Below, in pieces: positions 1 to 18,734 of a stretch of 64,000 bases of DNA; positions within the stretch are counted from its first letter, which is position 1, and the number at the start of each line of letters is the position of its first letter. The translations under genes and the position numbers were made by a program. This DNA is from a virus (lineage: Duplodnaviria > Caudoviricetes), in the IMG/VR virus record IMGVR_UViG_3300027606_000007, positions 1,709 through 65,708 of that record; one strand, 5' to 3'. The notes beneath the pieces are model-generated. The model was given only the letters and a program-made list of their open reading frames with translations. It ran no database searches and had not been told where the DNA came from.

Positions 1-654
1 AAGGGGCTGGCCGGCCTGCAGTACCTGATCGCGAACTCGGAGGTCATCACCGCGGGGGTCGACGGCGGCGGCCTCGACGACATGCTCGGCCTCGCGCTGC
101 TGGGCCGGCGCAAGGATGGGAAATGGCTCCTCTGGACGCGCGCCTGGATCCAGGAGGACGTACTCGACCTGCGGAAGTCGGAGTCAGCGCGCTTCCGGGA
201 CTTCGAGCGCGACGGCGACCTCGTGATCTGCAAGCTCCCCGGCGAGGACGTCGTCCAGGTCGCCGACATCATCGAGAAGGTCGAGAAGGCGCGGCTCCTC
301 GACAAGATCGGCGTCGACCAAGCCGGGATCGCGGCGATCGTGCAGGAGATCGTCGACCGGAAGATCGCGATCGAGCGGATCGTCGGCGTCCCCCAGGGCT
401 GGAAGCTGGTCGGCGCCATCAAAACCACGGAACGCAAGCTCAAAAGCGGCGATCTGTTTCACGGTGGGACCCGGTTGATGGCATACTCCGCCGGCAATGC
501 GAAAGCGGTCCCGCGCGGAAACGCGATGATGATCGACAAGCAGACCTGCGGGACCGCGAAGATCGATCCGCTGATGGCGACGTTCAACGCGGTCACGCTG
601 ATGACCATGGACCCGAAGCCGCTGCGCAAGGAATTCCAGGTCATGGTCTATTAA
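1..654 (+). CDS. terL: Terminase large subunit, C-terminal nuclease part (5'-truncated by window)
   Basis: Frame open from base 1: ...GVDGGGLDDMLGL... and ...KIDPLMATFNA, typical of the RNase H-like nuclease domain of lambda/HK97-type TerL. Confidence 0.92.
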   Translation, partial: KGLAGLQYLIANSEVITAGVDGGGLDDMLGLALLGRRKDGKWLLWTRAWIQEDVLDLRKSESARFRDFERDGDLVICKLPGEDVVQVADIIEKVEKARLLDKIGVDQAGIAAIVQEIVDRKIAIERIVGVPQGWKLVGAIKTTERKLKSGDLFHGGTRLMAYSAGNAKAVPRGNAMMIDKQTCGTAKIDPLMATFNAVTLMTMDPKPLRKEFQVMVY

Positions 655-657
655 AGG

Positions 658-2706: not shown

Positions 2707-2732
2707 TCTGCATCCGCAGTTGCCCAACGACG

Positions 2733-2758
2733 ACCAGCCCTTCGGGGCTGGTTTTTTT
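2733..2758 (+). terminator. Rho-independent terminator after capsid gene
   Basis: ACCAGCCC-TTCG-GGGCTGGT perfect 8-bp stem followed by a T run. Confidence 0.9.
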
Positions 2759-2772
2759 AGGAGAGCCGAATC

Positions 2773-3279
2773 ATGGAAGACCTCAAGACCAAGCACCTTG
2801 TCGCGACGCGCCGCTTCCCCTACCAGACGCGACACCTCGCCGCCGACGAACACTTCGTCGCCGCGTCCGAACGCGACGCGCAGATCCTGACCGCCGTCGG
2901 CCGCGCCCGCTACGCGACGAAGGACGAGATCGCCGGCAACACCGGCGACGAGCAGGCCTCGACCTCGAAGACCGCCGCGAAGACCCCCGCCAAAGCCAAG
3001 GCCTCGCAGCCTGCCGCGAAGAAGCCGGCCACCGCGCCCGCCGCGCCGACCACGGCCCCCGCACCGGCGCCGGCCCAGGCCGAGCAGCACCAGCGCCGCG
3101 CCAGCGATGACGGCCAGCCCGCGGCCGGAACCCAGGTTCCCGTCCAGCCGCCGAGCCCCGGCGCCGTCGGTCCGATGACGACCGGCTCCTCGCCGCTGGT
3201 CCCGGATCACATCCGCGGCGGCAACGAACCGGCCGCCGGCGACAAGCCCGCCGACGAAGCTCCGAAGACGGAGCAGTGA
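2773..3279 (+). CDS. Hypothetical head-associated protein with Pro/Ala/Thr-rich tail
   Basis: GGAG RBS, position after capsid, compact N-terminal domain plus low-complexity C-terminus. Confidence 0.7.
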   Translation: MEDLKTKHLVATRRFPYQTRHLAADEHFVAASERDAQILTAVGRARYATKDEIAGNTGDEQASTSKTAAKTPAKAKASQPAAKKPATAPAAPTTAPAPAPAQAEQHQRRASDDGQPAAGTQVPVQPPSPGAVGPMTTGSSPLVPDHIRGGNEPAAGDKPADEAPKTEQ

Positions 3280-3512
3280 TGGCGGAGGTCGTCGTCGAGG
3301 TGAAGGTCCCGCGCCTGACCCGCGCGCTTCTGGCCGCCGCATCTGCAGCACTGAGCCCGGTGACGTGGCTCCTGCTGCTGGTGATCGGCGGATTCGCATT
3401 GACGACGATCGGCGTCGGCGTGACATTGGGGGCCGGGCCCGCGATGATCCTGCTCGGCGTCGAGTTCTTCATCGTCGCAGGCCTGATCGTGAAGGGAATG
3501 ACCCGTGAATGA
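3276..3512 (+). CDS. Small two-TM membrane protein
   Basis: Two hydrophobic segments; overlaps both neighbours. Confidence 0.65.
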   Translation: MMAEVVVEVKVPRLTRALLAAASAALSPVTWLLLLVIGGFALTTIGVGVTLGAGPAMILLGVEFFIVAGLIVKGMTRE

Positions 3513-4944
3513 GATGACCGTCTTCGGCGCGCTCCGCAACGCCTTCCGCGGCAAGGCCGCCGTCGGCGTCACCGACACGTCGCTCCTCAGCGGCGGCCGC
3601 GGCTGGTATCCGCTGGTGCGCGAGCCGTTTACCGGCGCGTGGCAACGGAACATGGAGATCCGGCAGGACCTCGCGACCGCGAATTACGCGGTCTATGCCT
3701 GCATCACCCTGATCGCGGCCGACGTCGGCAAGCTGGACCTCAACCTCGTCGAGCGCGACGCCGACGGCATCTGGGAAGCTGTCACGAGCCCGGCCTTCTC
3801 GCCTGTCCTCGCGAAGCCGAACGATTTCCAGACCCGGCAGCAGTTCCTCGAAAACTGGATGGTCTCGAAGCTGTCGCGCGGGAACACCTACGTCCTCAAG
3901 GGCCGCGACAATCGCGGCGTCGTGACCCGCCTCTGGATCCTGGATCCGTCGCGCGTGAAGCCTCTCATCACGACGCTCGGCGACGTCTACTACCAGCTCT
4001 CGACGGACAACCTCGCCGGCATCGAGGAGGCCGAGATCACGGTCCCGGCGTCGGAGATCATTCACGATCGCTGCACGCCGCTGTATCACCCCCTCTGCGG
4101 CGTCCCGCCGCTGATCGCGTGCGGGCTCGCGGCGATGCACTCGATGAAGCTGACCGAGAACATGGCGCAGCTCTTCGCGAACATGAGCCAGCCCGGCGGC
4201 ATCCTGTCGGCGCCGGACCACATCGAGGACGACACCGCGAAGCGGATCAAGGACCACTTCGACCAGAACTACAGCGGCGCCAATGCCGGCAAGGTGGCCG
4301 TCCTCGGCGACGGGCTGAAATACGAACAGCTCGCCTTCAAGCCGGTCGACGCGCAGGTCGTCGAGCAGTTCAAGCTGACGGGGACCATGGTCTGCGCCGC
4401 TTTCCACGTCCCGCCCTTCAAAGTTCACCTCGGCGAGCTTCCCGCGGGCCAGAAGGCCAGCGACCAGAACCAGATCTATTACAGCGACTGTCTGCAGGCG
4501 CACATGACGGGCATCGAGAACGGCCTCGACCACGGTCTGAAGCTGACCGAGATCGTCGGGAAGACCCTCGGCACGATGTTCGACACCGACGGCCTCCTCC
4601 GCATGGACCAGCTCACGCAGATGCAGGTCCAGAGCGAGGGCGTGAAGGGCGGCATCTTCAAGCCGAACGAAGCCCGCCGCACCTTCAACCGGAAGCCGGT
4701 CGTCGGCGGCGACACGCCCTACATGCAGCAGCAGAATTTCGCGCTGTCCGACCTCTTCAAGCGGAGCCAGCAGGAGGACCCCTTCAAGACCGCGGCCCCT
4801 CCGGCACCGGCGCCGGCCGCGGCCAACGACGACGCCGCGGATCCTGCGGCCGCCGAGGACGACGTCGACGCCGAGGACGAGGACCTGAAGAGCTTCGCCG
4901 CGGCCCTGGAGAAGGGACTCGCGGAGGCTCTCCATGTCGCGTGA
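3505..4944 (+). CDS. Portal protein, HK97 family
   Basis: [43 protein letters not shown] motifs. Confidence 0.93.
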
Positions 4945-5446
4945 TGGTCGCGACGGTCGTGACGGGCGCGACGGCGTCGACGGCCTCCCGGGCGAGCAAG
5001 GACCGCGGGGCGAGCGCGGCCTCCGCGGCGAGCCGGGCCCGCGCGGTGAGACCGGCGCCGAAGGACCGGAAGGCCCGGCCGGCGAAAAGGGTGATCGCGG
5101 CGATCGCGGTGAGAAAGGCGAGCGCGGCCCCGCGGGACTGAACGGTCTTCCGGGCCGCAACGGCGCCGACGGCAAGGACGGCGCTCCAGGCGAGCGCGGG
5201 CCGCGTGGCCCCGCCGGTCCCCTGGGTCCGATGCCCGATCACGAGTGGGACGACGGAAAGCTCCGCTTCCAGCGTCAGAACGAAGACGGCGACACCGTCT
5301 GGGGCGACTGGGAAAATCTCCGCGGGCCGAAGGGTCCGAAAGGCCCCGCCGGACCGCCGGGCGCGAGCGGCGGCGGATCTGGCGGCGGCAACAGCGGCGG
5401 CGGTGCCGTCACGAGCTACGGCTATTTCCCCCAGGGCTGGACCTGA
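4934..5446 (+). CDS. Collagen-like protein (32 uninterrupted Gly-X-Y triplets)
   Basis: Counted from translation; short C-terminal domain ending YGYFPQGWT. Confidence 0.85.
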
Positions 5447-5449
5447 ATC

Positions 5450-6697
5450 ATGAGCATCGTCATCCTCGACAACTTCAACGGCGCCGCCGGCGACCTCACC
5501 GGCCACGCCCCGGACGTCGCCGTCGGCATGACGGACGAATGGCAGCTCGACTCCGGCTCCGGGGACATGGTCCTCACCGGATCCGGTGGCATCACCTTCG
5601 ACGGGAACAGCGCATCGACGACCTATGTCCTGACGGGCGACTTCAACATCCCGCTCCCCTTCGCGATGGAATTCGTGATGAACGGTTCCGTCACGAACTG
5701 TCAGGCATCGATGCGACTGCAGGACGACGCGACGGGATCCGACGTTTTCATGGACCTCCGCACCGACGACAGCGACGGCCCGGTGACTGGGGAGTTCCGC
5801 ACTTTCACCAACTTCAGCGGATCCGGCGCCGGCAACAACCCGATTTCAGGCACCTCGAAATGCCGCGCCGAGTGGTATCCCGACGGCCTCGTGAAGGTCT
5901 ACTTCGACGATGTCGAGGTCTATCACGGCGACGTCAACGGCGGAAACCCGCCGCAGACCTCGCACTATGACCGGCTCCTGGTCCGGATCCAGAACCCGGC
6001 GAGCCCGGACATCAACGTCGTCGACTACGTCCTCGTCGAGGCACTCGATCCGAACGTCAAGATCTACGAGGACACCTTCACGGGATCCGCTGGGACCGTG
6101 GTCGGTCACACGCCGGACACCTCGCCGCCTTCCTTCAGCGGCTACAGCTCCGGCCTGTCGCTCGACGGTTCCGGCGCGCTGGTGAATGCGACAGGCACGG
6201 CCGGCGCCACGGAGTCGGAGTTCGATGCCGACATCGAACTCGAATATCCGTTCATGGTGTCATTCGATGTCGAGCCGCTCGTCGACGGCGCGCAGCTACG
6301 TCTCAACATCGAGAACACCGTCACATCCGACCTCATCTTCATCGACTGCCGATGGAGCAACGGCGAGCTTCGGATCGCCATCAACGGAGGCGGATCGCAG
6401 AGCTGGTATCCGGGCGCCGATTTCGGGACCACGCGATTCCGCATGCGCTGGGAGTTCTACGAGGACGGAACGGTCTACCTCTACTCCAGCGGGATATTCC
6501 TGGAGATCAAGACCGTCGCGAACGCGCCGCCGGCACTGTCTTACGACCGTGTGACCTTCGGCATCGACAACGGCGGCGGCGGAAACTCGCTGATCTACCG
6601 CGCCAGCATCGAACAGATGCCCACGGGTGAGGCCCCTCCTGAAGGCGCTCCGATCCCTGTCATCATCCAGCACCTGAGAAACCAGGGGATCCTATGA
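5450..6697 (+). CDS. Putative virion protein with two tandem beta-rich (lectin-like?) domains
   Basis: Internal repeat LDNFNGAAGDLTGHAPDV / EDTFTGSAGTVVGHTPDT; acidic, Gly/Ser/Thr rich. Confidence 0.7.
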   Translation: MSIVILDNFNGAAGDLTGHAPDVAVGMTDEWQLDSGSGDMVLTGSGGITFDGNSASTTYVLTGDFNIPLPFAMEFVMNGSVTNCQASMRLQDDATGSDVFMDLRTDDSDGPVTGEFRTFTNFSGSGAGNNPISGTSKCRAEWYPDGLVKVYFDDVEVYHGDVNGGNPPQTSHYDRLLVRIQNPASPDINVVDYVLVEALDPNVKIYEDTFTGSAGTVVGHTPDTSPPSFSGYSSGLSLDGSGALVNATGTAGATESEFDADIELEYPFMVSFDVEPLVDGAQLRLNIENTVTSDLIFIDCRWSNGELRIAINGGGSQSWYPGADFGTTRFRMRWEFYEDGTVYLYSSGIFLEIKTVANAPPALSYDRVTFGIDNGGGGNSLIYRASIEQMPTGEAPPEGAPIPVIIQHLRNQGIL

Positions 6698-8124
6698 CCA
6701 TCAAGCTCCGCCAATCGACCGCGAGTCAGGAACTCCCGCTCGGCTACTTCCTCGACAGCACCGACGGCGACACGCCGGAGACGGCGCTCACGATCGCGAA
6801 CACCGACATCAAGATCTGGAAGACGGGCGCGACGACGCTCGCCGACAAGAACAGCGGCGGCGCGACGCACATCGCCGGCGGCATCTACTACACGACGCTC
6901 GACGCGACGGACACGAACACCCTCGGCCCGATGGTGATCTTCGTCAAGGTCGCCGGCGCGCTGGCCGTGCGCCTGGAGTGCGAGGTCCTCGCGGCCAATG
7001 TCTACGATTCGCTCATCGCCGGATCCGATCAGCTCCAGGTCGACGTCACCCAGTTCGGCGGCACGAATGCGACGGCCACCGGCGGCCGGCCGGAGGTCAA
7101 CACCACGCACGCCGCCGGCACGGCCTGGGGATCTGGCGCGATCACCGCGGGGGTGATCGCGACGGATGCGATCGGCGCCGCCGAGCTGGCCGCAGACGCA
7201 GTGACCGAGATCGTGACCGGCGTCTGGGCCGCCGCGGCGCGCACGCTGACCGCGCTCGACGAAGACAGCACGACCCTCGACCTCGACAACACGATCCGGG
7301 CCGCGGTCGGCCTGTCCTCGGCGAACCTGGACACGCAGCTTTCCACGATCGACACCGTCGTCGACTCCATCCTTGCCGACACCGCGGCCATGGATTCGCG
7401 CCTGCCGTCGGATCCGGCAGACGCCTCGGACATCGCCTCGGCCTTCGGCACCGTCAACAGCACGCTCGGCACGATCGCCGGCTACATCGACACCGAGGTC
7501 GGCGCGATCAAGTCCGTCACCGACAAGCTCGACGACACGCTGGAGGACAGCGGCGGCGGCGTCTGGATCTTCACCGAGGCCGCGCTCGCGAACGCGCCGG
7601 CCGGCGGTGGCGGCGGCGGCGACGCGACGGAGGCGAAGCAGGACATCATCATCGCGGCGCTCGCCGTGGTCGACGGCAATGTCGACGGGCTCGTGACCGC
7701 CGTTGCCGACCTGCCGACGAATTCGGAGCTGTCGACCGCCCTCGCTTCTTCCGACGATGCCGTCATGGCCCGCCTCGGCGCGCCGGTGGGCGCCAGCCTG
7801 TCGGCCGACCTCGCGGCCGTGAAGTCGGACACCGCGGCGATCCTGCTCGACACCGGAACCGACGGCGTCGTCGTCGCGGCCGGGTCGAAAGAGGGATACC
7901 GCCTCAGCTCGACGGGCGTCGACGACATCCTGGACGAGTCGGTCGAGACCGGCGCCACGGTGCGGCAGTCGCTGCGCCTGTCGAATGCGGCGCTCGGCGG
8001 CAAGGCCTCCGGCCTGGAGACGACGGAAGCCACGTTCCGAGATCTCGCCGACACGAAGGATCGCCTCGTCGCGACGGTCGACGATAACGGAAACCGGACC
8101 GCGGTGACGCGCGACCTCACGTAA
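6694..8124 (+). CDS. Putative virion structural/fibre protein
   Basis: ATGA-coupled; Thr/Ala/Asp/Gly-rich 476 aa in the head module. Confidence 0.7.
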   Translation: MTIKLRQSTASQELPLGYFLDSTDGDTPETALTIANTDIKIWKTGATTLADKNSGGATHIAGGIYYTTLDATDTNTLGPMVIFVKVAGALAVRLECEVLAANVYDSLIAGSDQLQVDVTQFGGTNATATGGRPEVNTTHAAGTAWGSGAITAGVIATDAIGAAELAADAVTEIVTGVWAAAARTLTALDEDSTTLDLDNTIRAAVGLSSANLDTQLSTIDTVVDSILADTAAMDSRLPSDPADASDIASAFGTVNSTLGTIAGYIDTEVGAIKSVTDKLDDTLEDSGGGVWIFTEAALANAPAGGGGGGDATEAKQDIIIAALAVVDGNVDGLVTAVADLPTNSELSTALASSDDAVMARLGAPVGASLSADLAAVKSDTAAILLDTGTDGVVVAAGSKEGYRLSSTGVDDILDESVETGATVRQSLRLSNAALGGKASGLETTEATFRDLADTKDRLVATVDDNGNRTAVTRDLT

Positions 8125-8134
8125 GGGGCCGCCG

Positions 8135-8503
8135 GTGTTCGGGCGTCACTTCTTCGCCGGCCGCTACTTCGGCGGCCGCTTCTTCGGGGATGGAGGCGAT
8201 CAGGCCCCGCCGGGCGCGAGCGCGGCCGAGATCTGGGCTTACGTCCTCCCGAACGGGAAGACCGCGGGGCAGAACCTCGCCGAGGTCAACGACGCGCTTT
8301 CAGCGATCGAGACCCTGACCGGCTTCTCGCTGGCCGAGTCGCTCTCGATCCTGTTGGCCGTGGCCGCCGGCAAGACGACAATCACCGCGCACGGCGGCGG
8401 CGCGGCGCGCGTGGAATTCGAGTCCGTTGACGGCAGCGGCGACGTCGTCGTCGGCGCCGATATGACGGGCAGCGCGCGGACCGACGTCGACCTCAACCCA
8501 TAG
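8135..8503 (+). CDS. Putative virion protein, C-terminal domain similar to that of 6694-8124
   Basis: GTG start with RBS; N-terminal [13 protein letters not shown]; C-terminal similarity seen by eye. Confidence 0.6.
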
Positions 8504-8511
8504 GGCAGACC

Positions 8512-9669
8512 ATGAACAAAATCGAAGCACTGGCCGCCTCGGTCATCAAGTCCGTCACGGGCTTCGTCGACAAGAAGCTCGAAGAGGCGCTGCGGCCGAT
8601 GCAGCTCCGCCTGTCCGAGATCAAGGACGGCAAGGACGGCGTCGACGGCAAGGAAGGGCCGCAGGGCCCGGCCGGCATCAAGGGCGACACCGGCGAGCGC
8701 GGCGAGATCGGTCCTCAAGGGGTGGCCGGCGAAATCGGTCCCCAGGGAGAGAAAGGCGTCGACGGCGCCGCCGGCCCGCAGGGTTTGAAGGGCGACCCCG
8801 GCGACCGTGGCCCGCAGGGTGATCGCGGCGAACCCGGACCGCAGGGGGAGAAGGGCGTCGACGGCGCCGCGGGTCCCCAGGGCCCGGCCGGCGAAACTGG
8901 CCCCCAGGGTCCGCAGGGCCCCCAGGGCGAGAAGGGGGTCGACGGCGAGCCGGGCCCCCAGGGCGAGAAAGGCGAGAAGGGCGACCGCGGTGATCCGGGC
9001 CCGGCCGGCGACATCGGCCCCGCCGGTCCTCAAGGCGAGAAGGGCCTCCCCGGCGACGCCGGTCCTGCTGGCCCCGCTGGCGATCGCGGCATGCCGGGCG
9101 AGAAGGGGATCGACGGGCGCGACGGGCGCGACGGCAAGGACGGTCCGCCGGGGCGCGACGCCATGCAGATCGACATCCTCCGCAGCATCGACCCGGAGCG
9201 CAGCTACCCGCGCGGCACCTTCGCGCATCACGACGGCGGCGTCTGGCGCTCGTTCAAGACGACGGAGGGGATGGACGGCTGGGACTGCATCTGGTCAGGC
9301 ATCAAGGAAGTCCGGGTCGAGATGGCCGCCGACGATGACCGGCTCTCGGTCGAGACCGTCGTCCTCAGCGACGGCCGCGAGTTCAAGCATCAGCGCGTCG
9401 CCGTCGACATGCGCTACCGTGGCGTCTGGAAGGAAGGCAGCTATCGACGAGGCGACTCCGTCACGCGCGACGGGTCGATCTGGGTCTGCCGCAACGCCGA
9501 GACGACGGAGCAGCCGCGCGAGGGCGCCGCGGACTGGCAACTCGCGGTGAAGCGCGGCTCGCCCGGCAAGGACGGCGCCGCCGGCGCGCCTGGACTGAAC
9601 GGAAAGGCCGGAGCGCCCGGCATCAACTACGGCAACATTCCGCCGGAGTTCGGAGGAGCCCCGCGATGA
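8512..9669 (+). CDS. Collagen-like protein (about 59 Gly-X-Y triplets) with C-terminal YRGVW domain
   Basis: Long GXY run; C-terminal [29 protein letters not shown]. Confidence 0.85.
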
Positions 9670-10283
9670 AGACCCCGAAGATCATCCAGACCGTCGACGA
9701 CGAGGTCATCCCCTTGGAGGAGCTGCGCCAGCAGTGCGAGATCGTCACGACCGAGATCGACTCCGACGGTGAGGAGTCCCATCCCGACGACGCGCTGATC
9801 CGCGGCTACCTGCTGGCGGCCGTGGCCTTCGCCGAGAAGTTCACGGGGAAGGCGATCGCACGCCGGATCTACGAGTTCGGCCTCGACAACTTCCCATGCC
9901 GCGGCGGAGCCATCGAGATCCCCCGGCCGCCGCTGATCGAGATCATCTCGTTCACCTCGGAGCCGGGGTCCGACGGGCAAGTCGAGCCGAGCCTCTACAG
10001 CGTCGACGACCTCGGCGACGTCGCGCGGATCTGCTGCGTCGGCGTCGCATGGCCCTACCAGCCGAACGCGACGAACGCGATCCGCGTCCGCTTCGAGGCT
10101 GGCTACGGTGACGACAGCGACGGCGCCGAGCCTCTGCCGGCGAACATCAAGCAGGCCCTCCTCTTGACCGTTGCGGACTGGTACAAAAACCGCGAAGCCA
10201 CCGTCGACGGCTCGCTGCAGGAGCTTCCGATCGGCGCCCTCGTGCTGCTGCGTCAGGATCGCGTCCGCCTGGGGATGGCATGA
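9666..10283 (+). CDS. Head-tail connector (gp6/phiE125 gp8-like)
   Basis: [46 protein letters not shown]. Confidence 0.88.
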
Positions 10284-10654
10284 GCGGGCTCCCGGCCGGC
10301 CGTCTCCGCGCGCAGGTCCTCTTCGAGGTCTTCCGCGACGACATCGAACTCGACAGCGACGGCGCCCACGTCGCCGACTGGTATCCCGCGTTTCCGGTTT
10401 CCAACGTGATGCCGGCCGAGATCTCTCCCCTCAGCGCGCGGGAACTGCTGACCGCGGCATCGATCGCCTCGAAGGCCACGCATCGAGTCCGGGTCCGGTT
10501 CCGCGAGGGGTTCACCGCCCAGATGCGCGGCACCGTGCAGAAGACCCGCGGGACGCCTCTGGTCTTCAACGTCGAGGGCGTCATCCCAGACGCCGAGACC
10601 GGCGGCCGCTGGATCACGCTGCTGGCCTCGTCCGGCGTCTCCGACGGACGATGA
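10280..10654 (+). CDS. Head closure / head-tail adaptor (SPP1 gp16-like)
   Basis: PAEISPLSARE, THRVRVRFR, FNVEGVIPD; position. Confidence 0.85.
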   Translation: MSGLPAGRLRAQVLFEVFRDDIELDSDGAHVADWYPAFPVSNVMPAEISPLSARELLTAASIASKATHRVRVRFREGFTAQMRGTVQKTRGTPLVFNVEGVIPDAETGGRWITLLASSGVSDGR

Positions 10655-11277
10655 AGAAGGGATTTCGCCCGCCGGCCTGGACGGGCCGCACCGTGGCCGT
10701 GGTCGGCGCCGGGCCCAGCTTGACCGCCGAGGACTGCGCCGCCGTCGCCGCCGCCGGCCTCCCGACGATCGCCGTTAACCTCGCCTTCCGGCTCGCGCCC
10801 GGCGCCGAGATCCTGCTCGGCTACGATTCCGCGTTCTGGCGCCTCTACTGGCGCGAGGCCGCCGAGATGTGCCCCGAAGCGAAGCGCCTGCAGGTCTCGC
10901 AGTCCATCCAGGGCGTCGACGTCGAGTCCGTCTGGGGCGCCGAATGGGTGACGAACGGTTATAACAGCGGCGCGCAGGCGCTCTCGCTGGCGCTGGCTTC
11001 CGGGGCCTCGCGCGTGCTGCTGCTCGGCATCGACTGCAAGGGCACGCCGGGGAAGATGCACTTCCACGGCGACCACGTCACCGGGCTGAAGAACGCGAAG
11101 AGCATGCACCTCTGGCCCCAGGCCTTCCAGACCGTAGGCCGCAGCGCTGGGAAGACTGGCGCCTCGATCGTGAACTGCAGCCGGGACACCGCGTTGACCT
11201 GCTTCCAACGCGCGACGCTGGAGGAAGAACTTTCCAAATTGCGCGTTTTGGAAAGTTCACCGATTGAAACAGCCTAA
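10651..11277 (+). CDS. Glycosyltransferase-like protein of the Maf/MptE-like (GT42/GT29-related) fold
   Basis: VAVVGAGPSL...IAVN...NSGAQALSLALASGASRVLLLGID...HFHG; ATG 10651 overlaps upstream TGA. Confidence 0.7.
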   Translation: MKKGFRPPAWTGRTVAVVGAGPSLTAEDCAAVAAAGLPTIAVNLAFRLAPGAEILLGYDSAFWRLYWREAAEMCPEAKRLQVSQSIQGVDVESVWGAEWVTNGYNSGAQALSLALASGASRVLLLGIDCKGTPGKMHFHGDHVTGLKNAKSMHLWPQAFQTVGRSAGKTGASIVNCSRDTALTCFQRATLEEELSKLRVLESSPIETA

Positions 11278-11371
11278 CGCGCGTCCCTGACGCGATTAGA
11301 AAAAATGCCGTGACACCTCCGGAGCGGCGCTGCGATGATCGTCTCCATCACGCAGCACGGGGCAACCTCAC
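11273..11371 (+). promoter_or_regulatory. Variant (7th) copy of the repeated promoter/leader cassette
   Basis: CCTAA-N17-ATTAGAAAAAATGCC-GTGACA-N18-GATGAT-cgTCTCCATCAC...ACGGGGCAACCT; leader matches copy at 44087 (CTCTCCATCAC...ACGGAGAACCT). Confidence 0.6.
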
Positions 11372-12163
11372 TTGAAAACCATTCGCGCCGGTCGCGGCCT
11401 CGGCGACAGTATCTACCTCGCGAGCATCGTCACGCACTTCGGATTGCACGGCGGCCGGCTCTGCGTCCTCAGCGATCACCCCGACGTCTTCCGGCACACG
11501 CCCGGCGCCCGCGCGGTAGAGCCCTTCGACCGGAACGGTGTCGACATCGTCAGCCACTACGTCATGGGAAAGCGCAACACGAAGACGACCCAGTTCCAGG
11601 ACATGGTCGCCGCCGCCGGCATCACCGAAGAGGTCCCGCTCCGGCTGATGTGGCGCAAGGGAACGCCCTCGCTGATCGATGGGCTCCGGGCCGACGGCCG
11701 GCCCGTGGTCTGCGTCCAGATGCCGCGGGCACCGATGGGCAGGACCGACGGATTCGGCGCCGAGCTGATGCCGGACTTCGAGGTCATGCAGTCCGTCGTC
11801 GATGCCGTCGGCAAGCACGCCAGCATCGTGCAGATCGGCGGCGGCGCGCCGCTGTTCTACTTCCGAGGCCTGACCATGAACCTCGCGAACGGGACCACCG
11901 TCGAGCAGCTCATCGACATCGCCCAGGCCGCCGACGGCTTCATCGGCTACCCGTCGTTCGTGATCCCGCTCGCGGAGTCCTTCAGGAAGCCGCTCTTCGC
12001 GATCTGGGCGAAGGCCGGGCTCCGATCGAACACCGACTTCATCCGCCTCATCACCCCCGAGAAGGTCGTCCACCACAAAGAGGACGCCTTCGTCATCACC
12101 GACAAGAACAACCAGCAGGAGATCTCCGAACGTGTCGACGCCTTCCTTCATCGCCTTCAGTGA
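11372..12163 (+). CDS. GT9-like (heptosyltransferase-like, GT-B) glycosyltransferase
   Basis: N-terminal GLGDSIYLASIV; C-terminal NLANGTTVEQLIDIAQAADGFIGYPSFVIPLAESFRKP resembles GT9 C-domain; TTG start. Confidence 0.65.
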   Translation: MKTIRAGRGLGDSIYLASIVTHFGLHGGRLCVLSDHPDVFRHTPGARAVEPFDRNGVDIVSHYVMGKRNTKTTQFQDMVAAAGITEEVPLRLMWRKGTPSLIDGLRADGRPVVCVQMPRAPMGRTDGFGAELMPDFEVMQSVVDAVGKHASIVQIGGGAPLFYFRGLTMNLANGTTVEQLIDIAQAADGFIGYPSFVIPLAESFRKPLFAIWAKAGLRSNTDFIRLITPEKVVHHKEDAFVITDKNNQQEISERVDAFLHRLQ

Positions 12164-12827
12164 GTGCCGCCCCTTCATCACGGGGAAGCGCGTCGTCATC
12201 GTAGGATCCGGTCCCGGCGCCGTTCTCAACGCGATCGGGTTCATCGACTCGCATGACGTCGTCGTCCGGGTCAACAACTACGGGCATCACTCGAACCTCG
12301 GCAACCGGACCGACGTCTTCTATTCTTTCTTCGGCGGCAGCATCAAGAAGACGCGCGAGGAGCTGATCGGCGACGGCGTCCGGCTCTGCATGTGCAAATG
12401 CCCGGACGCGAAGCCGATCGAGTCGCGCTGGCATGAGCAGAACGGCCGCGAGCGCGGCGTCGACTTCCACTACATCTACGAGGACCGGAAGGACTTCTGG
12501 TTCTGCCCGACGTTCGTCCCCGACTCGCTGCACTTCCTGCAGGGCTTCAAGCTGCTCGGCAACCACGTCCCGACGACGGGCTTCTCCGCGATCCTGGACA
12601 TCGCAGCGCTCCAGCCGAAGTCGCTCCACCTCACCGGCTTCGACTTCTTCAGCAGCGGAATTCACAACCTCAATCAGGCGTGGCGACCCGGGGATCCCCG
12701 TGATCCAATCGGCCACGTCCCGGAGCGCGAGGCCGAATACCTGCGTCTCGCTCTCCAGGCGAAGACGTGGCCCTTCCCGGTCACGATGGATGCAGCGATG
12801 CGAAAGGCAATGGAGGCCATACGGTGA
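12132..12827 (+). CDS. GT29-like (sialyltransferase-like) glycosyltransferase
   Basis: RVVIVGSGPG...IDSHDVVVRVNN (sialylmotif L-like); PTTGFSAILD...LHLTGFDFF (motif S-like) and downstream His. Confidence 0.75.
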   Translation: MSTPSFIAFSECRPFITGKRVVIVGSGPGAVLNAIGFIDSHDVVVRVNNYGHHSNLGNRTDVFYSFFGGSIKKTREELIGDGVRLCMCKCPDAKPIESRWHEQNGRERGVDFHYIYEDRKDFWFCPTFVPDSLHFLQGFKLLGNHVPTTGFSAILDIAALQPKSLHLTGFDFFSSGIHNLNQAWRPGDPRDPIGHVPEREAEYLRLALQAKTWPFPVTMDAAMRKAMEAIR

Positions 12828-13411
12828 GCGATCTTCAATACTGGAGCGAGGCGATCGAGAAGCAGTGCGGCGAAAGGGTGATGATCGCCCTCCGCGACCC
12901 CATGCTGCGACAGGCGCTGGACAAGATCGGTCCCGGCCTCTTCCGTCGCAGCTCGGTTTTTCACGGGCTCGGCGACTTCCTGCATGAGCAGCAGATCCGC
13001 GGCGGCCGCTGCTTCGAGATCGGCACCTGGAACGGCCTCACCGCAGCCGTCCTGTCGCGCCACTTCGACGAGGTCGTGACGGTCGACATATTCGATCAGC
13101 CGGAGAAGCAGGCCGTCTTCGAGGTCCTCGGCATCAAGAACGTCCGCTTCGTCCACATCAAGGACAACGTCGCGAAGGCGAAATTCGCGCGGACGCTGGA
13201 CTTCGACTTCGCCTATGTCGACGGCGATCACGCCAACGACACCGAGGCCGACTTCGCGCTGACGCGCCGCGGCGGCCGCGTCCTCTTCCATGAGGCATGG
13301 CCGCATCAGCCGCCGGTGTGGGACCTGCTGCATACCCTGCCGCAGAACGAGATCTCGTGGAACGGGAAAGGCCTCGCGCTGTGGCGCGACAGCTCGAAGG
13401 GGGTCCGCTGA
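12824..13411 (+). CDS. Class I SAM-dependent methyltransferase (Methyltransf_24-like)
   Basis: FEIGTWNGLT, VVTVD, FAYVDGDH, VLFHE; GTG 12824 overlaps upstream TGA. Confidence 0.8.
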   Translation: MSDLQYWSEAIEKQCGERVMIALRDPMLRQALDKIGPGLFRRSSVFHGLGDFLHEQQIRGGRCFEIGTWNGLTAAVLSRHFDEVVTVDIFDQPEKQAVFEVLGIKNVRFVHIKDNVAKAKFARTLDFDFAYVDGDHANDTEADFALTRRGGRVLFHEAWPHQPPVWDLLHTLPQNEISWNGKGLALWRDSSKGVR

Positions 13412-13911
13412 TGGATCCGATCCTCTACACCTACAAGGGCGGCACGTTCCCGGACTACCTCAAGCGCGGCAACGCCTGTCAGCACATCGCGGCCACGGCC
13501 GCCCACTTCTGCAAGGGCCGCGGCGTCGACGTCGGCGCGAACGAGTGGCCCCTGCCGGGCGCGATGCCGGTCGATGCGAAACACGGCGGCGACGCGATGC
13601 ACCTCCCGCCAGAGATGACGGGACTCGACTTCGTCTTCAGCTCGCATTGCCTCGAACACCTGGAGCAGCCGCGCGCCGCGCTGAAGCACTGGGCCTCGCG
13701 CCTGCGCCCCGGCGGCGTGCTGTTCCTCTACCTGCCGCATCCGGACATGACCTACTGGAGGCCGGAGAACTGCCCGAAGCATCGGCACATCTGGTATCCG
13801 CATGCGATGGTGAAGATGGTCCGCGGCGCCGGCTTCGTCGACGTCATCAACTCGGAGCGCGACCTCGCCTGGAGCTTCTCCGTCGTCGGGTTCAAGCCCT
13901 GGAGCGAATGA
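13411..13911 (+). CDS. Class I SAM-dependent methyltransferase (Methyltransf_11-like)
   Basis: GVDVGAN, DFVFSSHCLEHL, LRPGGVLFLYLP. Confidence 0.85.
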   Translation: MDPILYTYKGGTFPDYLKRGNACQHIAATAAHFCKGRGVDVGANEWPLPGAMPVDAKHGGDAMHLPPEMTGLDFVFSSHCLEHLEQPRAALKHWASRLRPGGVLFLYLPHPDMTYWRPENCPKHRHIWYPHAMVKMVRGAGFVDVINSERDLAWSFSVVGFKPWSE

Positions 13912-14573
13912 CCATGGACCGTTTCATTGCCACGATGCCGGCGCGCGACGACGGCGACCTTCGGATCTGCGACCAGCTCGGCGTCGCCTATCAGGCCGAC
14001 ATGACGGTGACGGCCTCCTACGATGAAGCCTACATGGACCGCTGCGCATCTCACCCGCCGCAGATGGTCCGCGACATCAATGCGCTAAGAAACGCATTCG
14101 TCGACCGATTCATTCCGAAGCGCGCCGCGGTCGTCGACATCGGCGTCGGCGATGGCGCCTTCATCCGCTCCCGCGCCCACACCAAGGGCCTCGACGTGAA
14201 CCCGGCGGCCGTTCGCTGGCTCCGGGCCTGCGGCCTCAACGCGGCCACGATCCGACAGCATTCGGTGACGATGTGGGACACCCTCGAACACGTCCCCGAC
14301 CCCGGCCTCTACCTGGACGAGATCTCGGTCAGCTACTTCCTATTCGTCTCGATCCCGGTCTTCTCGGACCTCAAGCGGATCCGCGAGAGCCGGCACTACC
14401 GGCCCGGCGAACACCTCTACTACTTCACCGACGTCGGCTTCGTCGAATGGATGAACTGCCACGGCTTCCAGCTCAAGGCGCGCGACGACTTCGAGAGCCG
14501 GCTCGGACGCGATACCATCGCGACATTCGCGTTTAAGAGGGTCGGGCCAGCATGGGAGACGCCGTCGTCATGA
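13908..14573 (+). CDS. Class I SAM-dependent methyltransferase (Methyltransf_23-like)
   Basis: VVDIGVGDGAF, GLDVNP, VTMWDTLEHVPDP, EHLYYFT. Confidence 0.85.
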   Translation: MTMDRFIATMPARDDGDLRICDQLGVAYQADMTVTASYDEAYMDRCASHPPQMVRDINALRNAFVDRFIPKRAAVVDIGVGDGAFIRSRAHTKGLDVNPAAVRWLRACGLNAATIRQHSVTMWDTLEHVPDPGLYLDEISVSYFLFVSIPVFSDLKRIRESRHYRPGEHLYYFTDVGFVEWMNCHGFQLKARDDFESRLGRDTIATFAFKRVGPAWETPSS

Positions 14574-15058
14574 AAGTCGAGGGGCTCCAGGGCGTCTACG
14601 AGATGCTCCGGAGCCTCCCCGCCGAGGTCGTCTCGAAGAAGGGCGGCCCCGTCAAGCGGATCCTCCGCCGTGCCGCGCTGCTGATCCACGCCGCCGAGAA
14701 GGCGAACCTCCAGAAGGTCACGGCGAAGGCCGCGGACGCCGACACCCGCTATAGCACGGGCCTCCTCATCGAGAACCTGATCGTCAGCCGCGGCAAGGCC
14801 CCTGCCGACGGCAAGGGTGAGCGACAGCTCGTCCGCGTCCGCCGCAAGACCTACCCGGACCGCACCGGGAAGCCGGTGACCACGCTCAAGACCGCCCAGA
14901 TCCTGGAATACGGCTCCGAGAAGCAGGACGCCGAGCCCTGGATCCGGCCGGCCTTCCTGGAGCAGGCGCCGAAGGCGATCGAGCTGATCGAGCGCGAGCT
15001 TCCCCGCGAGATCGAGCGCATCGCGAAGCGGCTCGCCAAAGAGAAAGGACGGCGCTGA
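14570..15058 (+). CDS. HK97 gp10-like tail component
   Basis: VEGLQGVYEMLRSL...LEYGSEKQDAEPWIRPAF; ATGA overlap suggests start 14570. Confidence 0.85.
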   Translation: MKVEGLQGVYEMLRSLPAEVVSKKGGPVKRILRRAALLIHAAEKANLQKVTAKAADADTRYSTGLLIENLIVSRGKAPADGKGERQLVRVRRKTYPDRTGKPVTTLKTAQILEYGSEKQDAEPWIRPAFLEQAPKAIELIERELPREIERIAKRLAKEKGRR

Positions 15059-15423
15059 TGCTTCCCGAGGTCACTGCATGGCTCGCGGCCGCCGCGGACG
15101 TCACCGCGATCGTCGGGACCCGGATCTACCGCCGAGGCTTCGCGCCTCAGGGGACCGTCGAGTCGGGAAACCCCTATGTCACATGGTTCGTCGTCGACGC
15201 TCCGCCGGAGAACACCCTATCGGAGCGGCCCGGCATCGCCCGCGCGACCGTGCAGGTCGACTGCTGGAGCAAGGACGACCGCGAGTCCGTTCGGCTGGCC
15301 GAGGCCGTCCGCAACGCCCTGGAAACGCACGGCCACCAGACCGGCCAGCCCGTCGACGGCCGCGACCCGGAGACGAAAAAATGGAGGTTCGCCCTCCAGT
15401 TCGACTTCTGGGTGAAACGCTGA
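15058..15423 (+). CDS. Tail terminator / completion protein (DUF3168-like)
   Basis: IVGTRIY, PYVTWFVV, VQVDCWS; position. Confidence 0.8.
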   Translation: MLPEVTAWLAAAADVTAIVGTRIYRRGFAPQGTVESGNPYVTWFVVDAPPENTLSERPGIARATVQVDCWSKDDRESVRLAEAVRNALETHGHQTGQPVDGRDPETKKWRFALQFDFWVKR

Positions 15424-15530: not shown

Positions 15531-16052
15531 ATGACCAAAGGCCTCGTTCAGACCCAAGGCTCCGAGATCTTCTTCATCGAGACGATCTCGCAGAGCGACC
15601 CCACCATCCGCAAGATGCAGTGCCCGACGGGCGTCACCGGCGTCGGTGGCGGCACGAAGGACCAGATCGAGACGACCTGTCTCGACACCATCGGCGACAA
15701 GGAATACCGCGCCGGTCTCGGCAACACGGCCCCGGTCTCCGTCCCTTTCAACCTGATCCCGGGCACCTGGAGCCACCGGATCCTGCTGGAGCTGAAGCGA
15801 AGCGGCGAGGTCGTGAACTGGCTCGTCTGCCTCTCCGAATCGGAGACGGACCCGACGATGGACTCCGACTTCGAGTTCGTTCCCCCGCTGGACCGGACCT
15901 CGTTCGCCTTCGAGGGCTACGTCGCCGAGTGCAACATCGACGTCTCCACGAACGAGATCGTTCGCGGCACGCTGACGATTCAGCGCAGCGGCACCGAGGT
16001 TGCCTCCTGGAACGCGCCGATCGAAGCTGGCACCCCTGACCCGGCCGCCTGA
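15531..16052 (+). CDS. Major tail tube protein
   Basis: QIETTCLD, FEGYVAE, GTLTIQRSG; position before chaperones. Confidence 0.85.
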   Translation: MTKGLVQTQGSEIFFIETISQSDPTIRKMQCPTGVTGVGGGTKDQIETTCLDTIGDKEYRAGLGNTAPVSVPFNLIPGTWSHRILLELKRSGEVVNWLVCLSESETDPTMDSDFEFVPPLDRTSFAFEGYVAECNIDVSTNEIVRGTLTIQRSGTEVASWNAPIEAGTPDPAA

Positions 16053-16784: not shown

Positions 16785-18734
16785 ATGGCCGCCGGTTCGA
16801 TCATCGTCGACCTCCTGATGAAGACGGGCGCCTTCGAGACCGACACCGATCGGGCCTCGAAGAAGCTGAAGCAGCTCGAAAAGGACATCAACAAGGCAGC
16901 ATCCGCCATGGGCGCGACGCTGGGCGTTGCCGTCATCGGCGCTGCTGTTGCGTTCGATCAGCTCATCAAGTCGGTCGCGGACTTCAAGGACTTCGAGGAG
17001 ATCGCCGGCGCGCCTGCGGAAGAGTTCGCGAGCCTCTCGCTCGCCGCGGCCGCCGCCGGCGTCTCCATGGACAGCATCGTCGCGTCGACGGTGAAGCTGA
17101 CGAAGGGCCTCTCCGGTGTCGAGGACGAGTCCGACGGCGTCGGCGCCGCGCTGAAGTCCATCGGGATCGAGATCGAGGCCTTCAAGAAACTCAACCCGGT
17201 CGAGCAGTACGAAGCGATCGGGAAGGCGCTCGGCGAATACGAGGACAGCGCGAAGAAGACGGCCGTCGCGGTGACCCTGCTCGGCAAGTCCGGCGCGGAG
17301 CAGCTCAAGGTCTTCAAGGCGCTCGAAGAGGCCGGAGGTCGGCAAGTCACCCTGACCCAGAAGCAGATCGAAGCGGCGGACGCCTACGCCGACGCCCAGG
17401 CCGTCGCCGTGGCCGAGCTGAAGATCTTCGGGCAGGTCGCGGCATCCGAGTTCCTGCCTGTCGTCACCGACATCCTCAACGCCTTCAGCGAACTCGTGAA
17501 GGGGATCGAGTTCTCGCAAACTGCGATGGACGTCCTCCGTTTCGCGTTCGATGCCGCGCTGACCGTGTTCCAAACCGTCGCCGTCATCGGATCCGACGTC
17601 GCCTTCGTGCTGACCACCATCGGCAAGGAAGCCGGCGCGGCCGCGGCTCAGATCGCGGCGCTGGCGCGCGGCGACATGGAGGGTTTCAAGGCGATCAGCA
17701 AGGCCGTCGAGGAGGACATCAAGCGTGCCCGCGCCGAGCTGGACAAGTTCCAGGCCTCGATCATGGGCGCCGGCCAGCCGCGCGCCGGCGCGAACGATTA
17801 CGGCGATGAGGAATACGGCGCCTCCCGCACGAAGAAGCAGAACACCTTCGAGGGTCCCGACAAGCGCGCGGAGAAGGCGAAGGCCGCCCGCGAGAAGGCC
17901 GCCAAAGAGGCCGCCGACATCGCGCAGCGTCAGGCCGAAGCCGAGGAGCAATGGGCGCAGGACACCGCCGAGGCCTGGGGCTACTGGCAGCAATACCGCG
18001 TCAAGGAAAGCGAGGTCGCGACCGAGGCCATGGCCGAGCAATGGAAGCAGATCTTCGCGGAGATCGACGCCGAGCAGGAGCGTGCGATCGAGGAGGGAAA
18101 GGCCTACCTCGAAGCGAAGGTCGACGAGATCTCGGAGTTCCAGAAACAGGCGATGCACAACCTGCAGGACTTCCTCGGATCTTCGCTGGAGGACGTCCTC
18201 AGCGGCAACTTCGACAACATCGAGGAGGCCTTCGCGAAGATGGTCCGCAAGATGGCCGCCGAAGCACTGGCCGCGCAGCTCAACGAAAAGCTCTTCGGCA
18301 AAGACGGAACGAGCGGTCTCTTCGGATCGCTCATCAGCTCGATCGCCGGCGGCTTCACAGGGGGCAGCACCGGAGGCGGATCGAGCTTCGCCTACACCGA
18401 TTCAAGCGGCGGCTTCAGCATGGTCCCCGGCTATGCGACTGGCACGAACTACGTCCCCGAGGACGGTCTCGCGATGCTGCACAAGGGCGAAGCCGTGGTC
18501 CCGAAGCAGTACAACCCGAGCGCCGGCGCGCCGAGCGCGGGGAACAACACCGTCCAGATCATCAACAACGGCGCGCCGGTGAACGCGACCTCGACGACGG
18601 AGCGACAGCCAGACGGCAAGCAGTTGACGAAGATCATCCTCGACACCATCGAGCAGGACATCCGAGCCGGCGGCAAGGTGTCGAAGATGCAGCAGAACAC
18701 CTTCGGCCTCAAGCGCCAGCTCCCGCGGCGTTGA
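16785..18734 (+). CDS. Tape measure protein (649 aa)
   Basis: Ala-rich helical; N-terminal GSIIVDLLMKTGAF; C-terminal YATGTNYVP...LHKGEAVVP. Confidence 0.9.
   Translation: MAAGSIIVDLLMKTGAFETDTDRASKKLKQLEKDINKAASAMGATLGVAVIGAAVAFDQLIKSVADFKDFEEIAGAPAEEFASLSLAAAAAGVSMDSIVASTVKLTKGLSGVEDESDGVGAALKSIGIEIEAFKKLNPVEQYEAIGKALGEYEDSAKKTAVAVTLLGKSGAEQLKVFKALEEAGGRQVTLTQKQIEAADAYADAQAVAVAELKIFGQVAASEFLPVVTDILNAFSELVKGIEFSQTAMDVLRFAFDAALTVFQTVAVIGSDVAFVLTTIGKEAGAAAAQIAALARGDMEGFKAISKAVEEDIKRARAELDKFQASIMGAGQPRAGANDYGDEEYGASRTKKQNTFEGPDKRAEKAKAAREKAAKEAADIAQRQAEAEEQWAQDTAEAWGYWQQYRVKESEVATEAMAEQWKQIFAEIDAEQERAIEEGKAYLEAKVDEISEFQKQAMHNLQDFLGSSLEDVLSGNFDNIEEAFAKMVRKMAAEALAAQLNEKLFGKDGTSGLFGSLISSIAGGFTGGSTGGGSSFAYTDSSGGFSMVPGYATGTNYVPEDGLAMLHKGEAVVPKQYNPSAGAPSAGNNTVQIINNGAPVNATSTTERQPDGKQLTKIILDTIEQDIRAGGKVSKMQQNTFGLKRQLPRR

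Follow-up and report, generated by a model that had tools for sequence, protein, structure and literature searches.

The 64,000-nucleotide stretch of viral DNA analysed here (hereafter the window; positions 1,709 to 65,708 of IMG/VR record IMGVR_UViG_3300027606_000007) belongs to a viral contig of 65.7 kb, linear class, 81% complete and with ~66% GC, whose left arm is a siphovirus morphogenesis operon. In this operon a cassette of six open reading frames (ORFs), g1 to g6, all in the same orientation, occupies positions 10651-14573 between the genes for head closure and tail completion. The cassette combines glycosyltransferase-like genes with genes for class I S-adenosylmethionine (SAM) methyltransferases:

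10280..10654, plus strand: head closure (head completion), the upstream boundary (Pfam PF05521 Phage_HCP, 1.5e-11; PHROG 25, 1.9e-13)
10651..11277, plus strand: g1, Maf/DUF115/GT42-like glycosyltransferase domain, 208 aa (PHROG 4603, 8.8e-42)
11278..11371, plus strand: non-coding gap of 94 nt between g1 and g2, containing a short GC hairpin and a single weak site of the sigma-70 type
11372..12163, plus strand: g2, compact GT-B enzyme of the GT9 (heptosyltransferase) type, 263 aa, TTG start (AlphaFold2 (AF2) model)
12132..12827, plus strand: g3, GT29/GT42-like transferase, 231 aa (Pfam PF00777, 5.7e-3, below the cut-off)
12824..13411, plus strand: g4, class I SAM methyltransferase of the Methyltransf_24 type (Pfam PF13578, 8.7e-7)
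13411..13911, plus strand: g5, class I SAM methyltransferase of the Methyltransf_23/11 type (PF13489, 3.1e-11; PF08241, 6.7e-8)
13908..14573, plus strand: g6, class I SAM methyltransferase, Methyltransf_23 (PHROG 6564, 1.5e-44)
14552..15058, plus strand: tail completion (HK97 gp10-like / Neck1), the downstream boundary (PHROG 5, 1.3e-9)

The six ORFs have a GC content of 0.63-0.68 and a GC content at third codon positions (GC3) of 0.86-0.92. Both values equal those of the flanking virion genes, the GC3 also that of the capsid and portal genes, and because of this composition we regard the ORFs as real genes. The stop codon of the head-closure gene overlaps the start of g1 (ATGA), g4 starts at a GTG overlapping the stop of g3, g5 starts at the ATG at 13411, and overlaps of 32 nt and 22 nt are found between g2 and g3 and between g6 and the tail-completion gene, respectively. 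An earlier note on this DNA had described six tightly overlapping genes, which is correct for all junctions (overlaps of 1-32 nt, mostly 1-4 nt) but that of g1 and g2, where the 94-nt gap lies. In this gap, the only non-coding one of the cassette, a sigma-70-like site (GTGACA-18-GATGAT) is located at 11310-11339. One such promoter-like site against 0.5 expected by chance is not significant, and relatives do not conserve the gap. Its being a copy of a repeated early-promoter cassette was considered and rejected, blastn-short having returned only chance-level 10-12-mers. A hydropathy check revealed no membrane segment and no signal peptide in any of the six proteins.

In an island-free relative (L124) the head-closure gene (8931-9266) directly meets the tail-completion gene (9262-9714). 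The cassette is therefore an insertion between usual neighbours, in agreement with the claim of the earlier note that the island splits genes which are normally adjacent. The enzyme classes proposed there and their placement between the neck genes are likewise supported.

Single-sequence and profile searches of PDB sequences with g1, g2 and g3 gave nothing significant, and g1 and g2 were therefore assigned by fold comparison. The AF2 model of g1, built from 42 homologues, has a predicted local distance difference test score (pLDDT) of 93. It is nearest to the central catalytic domain of the flagellin glycosyltransferase Maf (5mu5), with a VIA-align Z of 16.3 and a root-mean-square deviation of 3.4 Å over 185 residues, followed by the GT42 enzyme Cst-I (Z 13.4; range for Cst-I/CstII, 12-13.4), the MptE HPPK kinase (Z 12.8), thiamine pyrophosphokinase (Z 11.4) and GT29 enzymes (8.5-9.4). 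The model thus shows the sialyltransferase-like modified GT-A catalytic domain of the Maf/DUF115 fold. Like Maf and GT42 enzymes, g1 carries a G-x-G-P-S-L motif, placed at the first strand as part of GAGPSLT, and in the g1 family G21-P22-S23-L24-T25, N43, D59, D128, H137, H142 and R178 are invariant. Unlike Maf with its 632 aa, g1 has only 208 aa, aligns solely to Maf residues 259-517, lacks the flanking N- and C-terminal Maf domains, matches PF01973 only below the threshold, and has no flagellar or CMP-nonulosonate (CMP, cytidine monophosphate) synthesis genes nearby. PF01973 is present in one g1 homologue (P0332) and in several fusion proteins.

The g1 family comprises 9205 clusters (E <= 1e-3) and includes natural fusion proteins (P0373, P0395, P0439, P0443, P0484, P0345, P0383, P0403 and P0462). 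In P0373, P0395, P0439, P0443 and P0484 a g1 domain is joined to a GT9-like domain in the order of the separate genes. Further fusions of the family are of the types tandem g1-g1, g1 with a TOD1/MUCI70-like domain, three g1 domains with a GT34-like domain, and GT2 with g1. These natural fusions to glycosyltransferase domains argue for g1 being a functional glycosyltransferase and for its working together with g2. Among the members of the cassette g1 is the most widespread, and it often occurs without g2, g3 or g6.

For g2, the AF2 model (pLDDT 95.4) was matched by Foldseek to WaaF (1psw, 3.3e-10) and TibC (1e-8). With VIA-align, Z values of 17.9 for 3tov, 17.8 for WaaF and 16.1 each for TibC and WaaC were obtained, the GT9 structures together spanning 15.7-17.9, compared with 14.2-14.6 for GT9-like NDH subunits and at most 11.6 for other GT-B folds of glycosyltransferases and epimerases. 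Hence, g2 is predicted to be a GT-B protein closest to the solved members of GT9. Superposition on WaaC, WaaF and TibC (Z 16-18) covers both GT-B domains; g2 is, however, 55-120 residues shorter than these enzymes, without a PF01075 match and without the N-terminal extension of the TibC type. Its family (103 homologues) has an invariant N-terminal R-G-x-G-x-G-D motif, the conserved G-D of which presumably matches the GT9 catalytic Asp. Comparison of the g2 family with E. coli WaaC by hhalign gave no signal (probability 0.2%). With gp11 (275 aa) of Pseudomonas aeruginosa phage PAJU2, distant homology was detected over 197 columns (hhalign E 5.5e-5), including the N-terminal motif in the form R-G-x-x-G-L-G-D. 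By analogy with the heptosyltransferases, the donor of g2 is possibly ADP-heptose (ADP, adenosine diphosphate).

The g3 family is abundant, strongly conserved and mostly viral, with >1183 homologues at 55-68% identity. Some homologues carry PF00777, and in the nearest Atlas clusters, which are viral, 57-73% of the members do. The N-terminus of g3 resembles sialyl motif L, the g3 profile aligning weakly (E 0.1) to this motif of ST3Gal1 (2wnb), and the H195-x4-E200 pair, invariant in the family, is presumably the equivalent of sialyl motif VS. By hhalign it is distantly related to the family of g1 (probability 89.6%, E 1.9e-6). Taken from these sequence comparisons, g3 is a GT29/GT42-like protein and a distant paralogue of g1. 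Typical GT29 enzymes are type II membrane proteins, lumenal and disulfide-bonded; g3 does not share this trait, having no hydrophobic segment (maximum 19-mer Kyte-Doolittle value, 1.55).

The methyltransferases g4, g5 and g6 belong to three different subfamilies of class I and resemble enzymes acting on small molecules or proteins, not DNA methylase families. Related loci have one or two copies of g4. The best-conserved gene of the locus is g5, with a median identity of 60% over 57 loci; across loci the median is 55% for g3, as against 48% for the portal and 43% for the capsid protein. The methyltransferase of a conserved three-gene core is g6, whose homologues are Orf13 in phage D3 and gp12 in PAJU2. 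By tblastn it matches D3, PAJU2, PMG1, Eowyn and KpGz_1, and in the Atlas viral Methyltransf_23 clusters.

Cultured relatives were sought in 50,697 phage records. The cassette region as a whole found no match there by blastn in distant mode, while tblastn found homologues of g1 in 49 records, all with proteobacterial hosts and including D3, PMG1, PAJU2 and coliphage P1 (PmgO); homologues of g6 occur in D3, PMG1 and PAJU2 as well. PAJU2 carries a g1-like gene (ORF010), the 275-aa GT9-like gene and a g6-like gene exactly between head closure and a gp10-like gene, that is, at the same neck site and with the same order of terminase, protease-capsid fusion and portal as in the window. The likeness to the Detrevirus phages PAJU2 and D3 amounts to 40-44% identity for g1 and 34-45% for g6, in addition to the GT9-like relationship described above. 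The two phages differ from the window in lacking g3, g4 and g5. In D3 the core is moreover split: Orf7 (g1-like) follows the capsid gene, Orf12 and Orf13 follow head closure, a KilA-N gene is inserted, and Orf14, at the tail-completion position, is annotated as HK97 gp10 family. A triad of a g1-like gene, a 296-aa protein and a methyltransferase forms a stand-alone operon in the 265-kb Klebsiella jumbo phage Eowyn (L181, 790-2875, minus strand), where the 296-aa middle protein aligns to g2 weakly but over its full length. Homologues of g6 are also found in the Serratia/Klebsiella phages KpGz_1 and KpHz_2, in the former with a g1 homologue ~1.5 kb away. The three-gene core is assigned to D3, PAJU2, PMG1 and jumbo Klebsiella/Serratia phages. 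Some of the cassette genes already stand in GenBank phages under automatic, PHROG-derived names ('alpha-2,3-sialyltransferase', 'methyltransferase'), and a full-text literature search found no paper on the function of the D3, PAJU2 or P1 homologues.

In IMG/VR, a scan with the g3 profile yielded 80 loci, and 85 loci with g3 after single-sequence scans were added. The order g1-g2-g3-(methyltransferases)-g6 is kept in these 85 loci at 40-60% amino-acid identity, so that the search for synteny in related phages suggested by the earlier note was successful; an island peculiar to one phage, as it had appeared at that stage, it is not, since ~90 related phage sequences have it. The number of methyltransferases varies, being one, two, three or four in 6, 13, 21 and 13, respectively, of 53 loci spanning g1-g6. 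Two g1 copies are present in five loci and two g2 copies in one. The usual flanks are head closure and tail completion; some lineages have the cassette between adaptor and head closure instead, or, like L040, immediately behind the capsid gene and followed by fibre-like genes and the adaptor. The cassette was also found in metagenome-assembled genomes (MAGs) of Betaproteobacteria and in a Pseudoduganella chromosome, the latter copy probably a prophage. Two contigs with the module (L094 and L096) are binned to 'Candidatus Saccharibacteria' and 'Anaerolineales' MAGs; as the other matches are Betaproteobacteria, they are probably mis-binned phage contigs. Judged from these sequences, the cassette is old, widespread and modular.

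It is also accessory. From ~570 portal relatives, 80 loci were collected with a portal profile, their portals being ~50% identical to that of the window, like those of cassette-bearing loci. The 37 loci that extend 7 kb or more past the portal on its downstream side were counted: 22 are free of all cassette genes, 12 carry g1 while g2, g3 and g6 went undetected, and three have the PAJU2-type triad with a divergent GT9-like gene that was found by the g2 profile (E 1e-8 to 5e-7). P1 forms plaques without pmgO (PMC10695390), a dispensability that fits any accessory role. Two of the relatives with g1 only carry other genes at the same place. One (L129, 7115-10647) has a protein with an Mtd_N domain and two methyltransferases at the same neck site; the other (L130, 8844-12962) has a P4H-like 2-oxoglutarate (2OG)-Fe(II) oxygenase (6.5e-15), a Methyltransf_11 protein, a weak GT8-like protein and three unknown ORFs. 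The site between head closure and tail completion is hence a hot spot for modifying enzymes of various kinds. The oxygenase of L130, located beside collagen-like genes, recalls the hydroxylation and subsequent glycosylation of collagen.

From the observed folds, motifs, gene order and distribution we infer a virion protein as the acceptor of the modification, host metabolites as donors, and the order of action and the methylation target set out below. The explanation we put forward is that the six genes form a late, cytoplasmic cassette with which the phage glycosylates and methylates its own virion proteins using donors of the host, a reading that we regard as evenly poised. A virion-directed role fits the persistence of the cassette within head/neck blocks, where it stays through at least four gene arrangements, including the split in D3. 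Its start and stop codons overlap those of neck genes, indicative of translational coupling, and the g1 homologue of PAJU2, ORF010, has been deposited as 'structural protein'. The hot-spot character of the site and the precedents of Corndog and Che8, described below, count in the same direction.

In the proposed sequence of events, g1 would start the modification by transferring a CMP-activated sugar of the ulosonic-acid type onto a virion protein, g2 would extend it with a sugar of the ADP-heptose type, g3 would add a further CMP-sugar, and g4-g6 would cap hydroxyl or other groups by methylation, all donors being supplied by the host. The order is suggested by the nested distribution of the genes, with g1 alone in some relatives, g1 plus the GT9-like gene and a methyltransferase in others, and g3 plus more methyltransferases in the full cassette: g1 would initiate, and the others would extend and cap. 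The groups methylated may belong to the sugar or to the protein.

Searches of the 65.7-kb contig (81% complete) found no CTP_transf_3, NeuB or NTP_transferase gene and no DNA polymerase A/B, in line with the statement of the earlier note that genes for nucleotide-sugar synthesis and a DNA polymerase are missing. As the contig is without sugar-activation genes, the sugar donors would be those of the host. Nonulosonic acids are, to our knowledge, produced neither by E. coli K-12, in which P1 grows, nor by PAO1, the host of D3 and PAJU2. Since the hosts are Gram-negative and nonulosonic acids are not made, CMP-activated 3-deoxy-D-manno-octulosonic acid (CMP-Kdo) and ADP-heptose are the obvious candidates, and possibly the donors. 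A Kdo-type sugar followed by heptose would mirror the order in the inner core of lipopolysaccharide (LPS). This more specific version, in which g1 is a protein-directed ulosonic-acid transferase and CMP-Kdo and ADP-heptose serve to build an O-methylated glycan, similar to the inner core of LPS, directly on virion proteins, must be called tentative and rather unlikely. For phage glycosyltransferases, use of the Kdo and heptose pools of E. coli has been described, in that case for DNA modification (10.1101/2023.12.21.572611).

As to the acceptor, the interval from portal to adaptor (4934-9669) has, besides several unknown genes, one for a collagen-like protein of 385 aa at 8512-9669 (Pfam Collagen, 8.3e-34), whose globular C-terminal domain matches the C-terminal parts of PHROG 'portal' families. 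In most related loci homologues precede the cassette. The protein probably forms a fibre of the head or collar and is a candidate acceptor. As an obligatory acceptor it was rejected, given the weak association with the cassette and the absence of such a gene from D3. A second lead, as a possible sequon, is the tetrapeptide D-S-D-G, which occurs five times in the window (5768, 9759, 10113, 10352 and 24746), each time in a virion protein, against 0.38 expected. Of 35 homologues of the head-closure protein 29 retain it, as do many adaptors, D[ST]DG is present in 9 of 23 tail-tube homologues, and reduced-island and island-free relatives are without D-S-D-G; it is missing from PAJU2 and from one further locus (L077). 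In mycobacteriophage Che8 the glycans sit on the capsid and the tail tube, where they protect the particle against antibodies, according to the accounts of Freeman 2023 in PMC12619734 and PMC13445384. Acceptor tails in the style of Che8 were rejected for the window, Ser/Thr-rich C-termini being absent from its capsid and tail-tube proteins.

A number of observations weigh against the assignment of the enzymes or against virion proteins as their target. At the level of the enzymes, g1 stays below the gathering threshold of PF01973 (MptE-like; 21.6 bits versus 34.6, the match spanning 30 residues), g2 has no Pfam match at E <= 0.1, PF01075 included, g3 reaches only 16.5 bits against GT29 PF00777 with its cut-off of 23 (E 5.7e-3), and NCBIfam and PDB searches with g4-g6 gave generic class I matches but no informative characterised relative. 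On the side of the acceptor, no signature was found in candidate virion proteins, and with regard to Ser/Thr-rich C-terminal tails on capsid or tail tube, phages with and without the island are alike. The collagen-like gene is only weakly tied to g1, being present in ~11 of 14 loci with g1 and in 11 of 22 without. D-S-D-G lies in a family-conserved loop, phylogeny confounds its link with the cassette, and other tetrapeptides of the window are equally extreme. The Eowyn triad is located outside any recognisable virion block.

Two further points of this kind lead to the first alternative, a late remodelling of the host envelope: the families closest to the cassette enzymes, GT9 (WaaC/WaaF) and GT42 (CstII), act mostly on LPS or lipooligosaccharide, and the proteins of the g1 and g2 families have, like WaaC, a basic isoelectric point (medians of 8.9 and 8.6). 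Here ulosonic acid, heptose and methyl groups would be placed on the LPS inner core or on a lipid-linked glycan, which may free progeny from debris or block superinfection. That the cultured phages with g1 all infect Proteobacteria would be in agreement with such a role, as would the Eowyn triad, a free-standing operon; in the other direction, the cassette sits among late neck genes, is translationally coupled to them and has stayed there through several rearrangements. In structure, g1 comes closest to a glycosyltransferase that acts on protein, the cassette proteins lack membrane segments and signal peptides, and in PAJU2 an O-antigen acetylase is encoded separately, by a moron on the opposite strand. 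Little would be gained from a change of the cell surface minutes before lysis. Lysogenic-conversion modules for O-antigen or LPS modification have membrane-associated enzymes in a moron-like unit that the prophage expresses, as a rule close to the attachment site, the integrase or the tail-fibre end. These features are also not found, the proteins being soluble and the genes lying in the late neck operon with overlapping codons and native GC3. On balance, we consider envelope remodelling unlikely.

Another target is conceivable too, such as host flagellin, pilin or a defence protein, a phage protein outside the virion or a small molecule, or g1 could be a structural component of the neck that has an enzyme fold. 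The annotation of PAJU2 ORF010 as a structural protein can be read in this way, as can the frequent occurrence of g1 without g2, g3 or g6. Two kinases, MptE (Z 12.8) and thiamine pyrophosphokinase (Z 11.4), have the same fold as g1, although Maf scores >3 Z units above them, and the invariant polar residues argue for an active enzyme. The methyltransferases do resemble small-molecule enzymes; the fusions of g1 to glycosyltransferase domains, on the other hand, argue for glycan assembly. These possibilities taken together appear rather improbable.

A hypermodification of phage DNA with glycans, such as Kdo or heptose on a modified base, as a protection against restriction is very improbable: phage enzymes placing Kdo or heptose on 5-hydroxymethylcytosine from the host pool are documented, and such clusters can lie near structural genes (10.1101/2023.12.21.572611), but the contig (81% complete) has no C5 DNA methylase (PF00145) and no thymidylate-synthase-like hydroxymethylase (PF00303), no hydroxymethyl-base enzyme is annotated in the complete PAJU2 genome, g2 matches GT9 and not T4 beta-glucosyltransferase, and the methyltransferases are of the small-molecule/protein type. 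The absence of a base hydroxymethylase asserted by the earlier note therefore stands for these two families; a search of the contig with Tet_JBP (PF12851) gave no match either, but its control was silent as well, which makes it uninformative.

For a cassette that modifies virion proteins, the nearest parallels are found among mycobacteriophages. In Corndog the interval from the portal to the protease gene holds genes for three glycosyltransferases and one O-methyltransferase, and the enzymes of cluster O mycobacteriophages are expressed in infected cells and not found in virions (PMC4351075). The window shares with Che8 and Corndog the presence of glycosyltransferase genes, with or without methyltransferase genes, in or beside the virion operon. 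It differs in its Gram-negative hosts, its Maf/GT42-, GT9- and GT29-like families, its neck site in place of the portal-to-protease interval and the lack of Ser/Thr-rich tails, and no Mycobacterium phage is among the tblastn matches of g1 and g6, the two genes searched in the cultured-phage records.

Among viruses of eukaryotes, chlorovirus PBCV-1 has in A064R a set of glycosyltransferase and methyltransferase activities that work in the cytoplasm and furnish the major capsid protein with O-methylated glycans. There the activities are fused in one protein, the families are unrelated and the glycans are N-linked. Virus-encoded glycosylation and methylation of virions is therefore already known, and the cassette differs in enzyme families, hosts and, probably, donors. 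Among tailed phages, we know of virion glycosylation shown only for mycobacteriophages so far.

If virion proteins are indeed the target, the cassette would be the first system for virion glycosylation known from phages with Gram-negative hosts, unrecognised until now in D3, PAJU2 and, with g1 only, P1. A large clade of proteobacterial siphoviruses, including these P. aeruginosa phages, would coat its particles with methylated sugars derived from the host, with consequences for immune recognition, particle stability, adsorption and the escape from defences that sense virion proteins. In mycobacteriophages virion glycosylation alters antibody recognition, which matters for phage therapy. Variable methyltransferases and swapped enzymes would diversify the particle surface, as O-antigen loci do that of cells. 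A family of ~9,000 clusters (P1 PmgO, PHROG 4603) would gain a function, and compact, soluble Maf-, GT9- and GT29-like enzymes would be defined. Homologous three-gene cores are present in cultured, genetically tractable phages, which makes the hypothesis directly testable.

The remaining genes of the morphogenesis operon are arranged around the cassette as follows:

82-654: terminase large subunit (end of the gene)
658-2706: protease-capsid fusion, 682 aa
3505-4944: portal
5450-9669: unknown genes and the collagen-like gene
9666-10283: head-tail adaptor
15058-15423: tail terminator
15531-16052: major tail protein
16785-18734: tape measure

The order of the head genes, with terminase, protease-capsid fusion and portal (82-4944), is unusual; it is common to PAJU2 and hundreds of IMG/VR contigs. 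Downstream of the gene for the central tail fibre, positions 24638-25534 encode a protein of 298 aa in which the Pfam Gp80 podophage fibre domain occurs twice (2.4e-50), and the fifth D-S-D-G (24746) lies within this protein.

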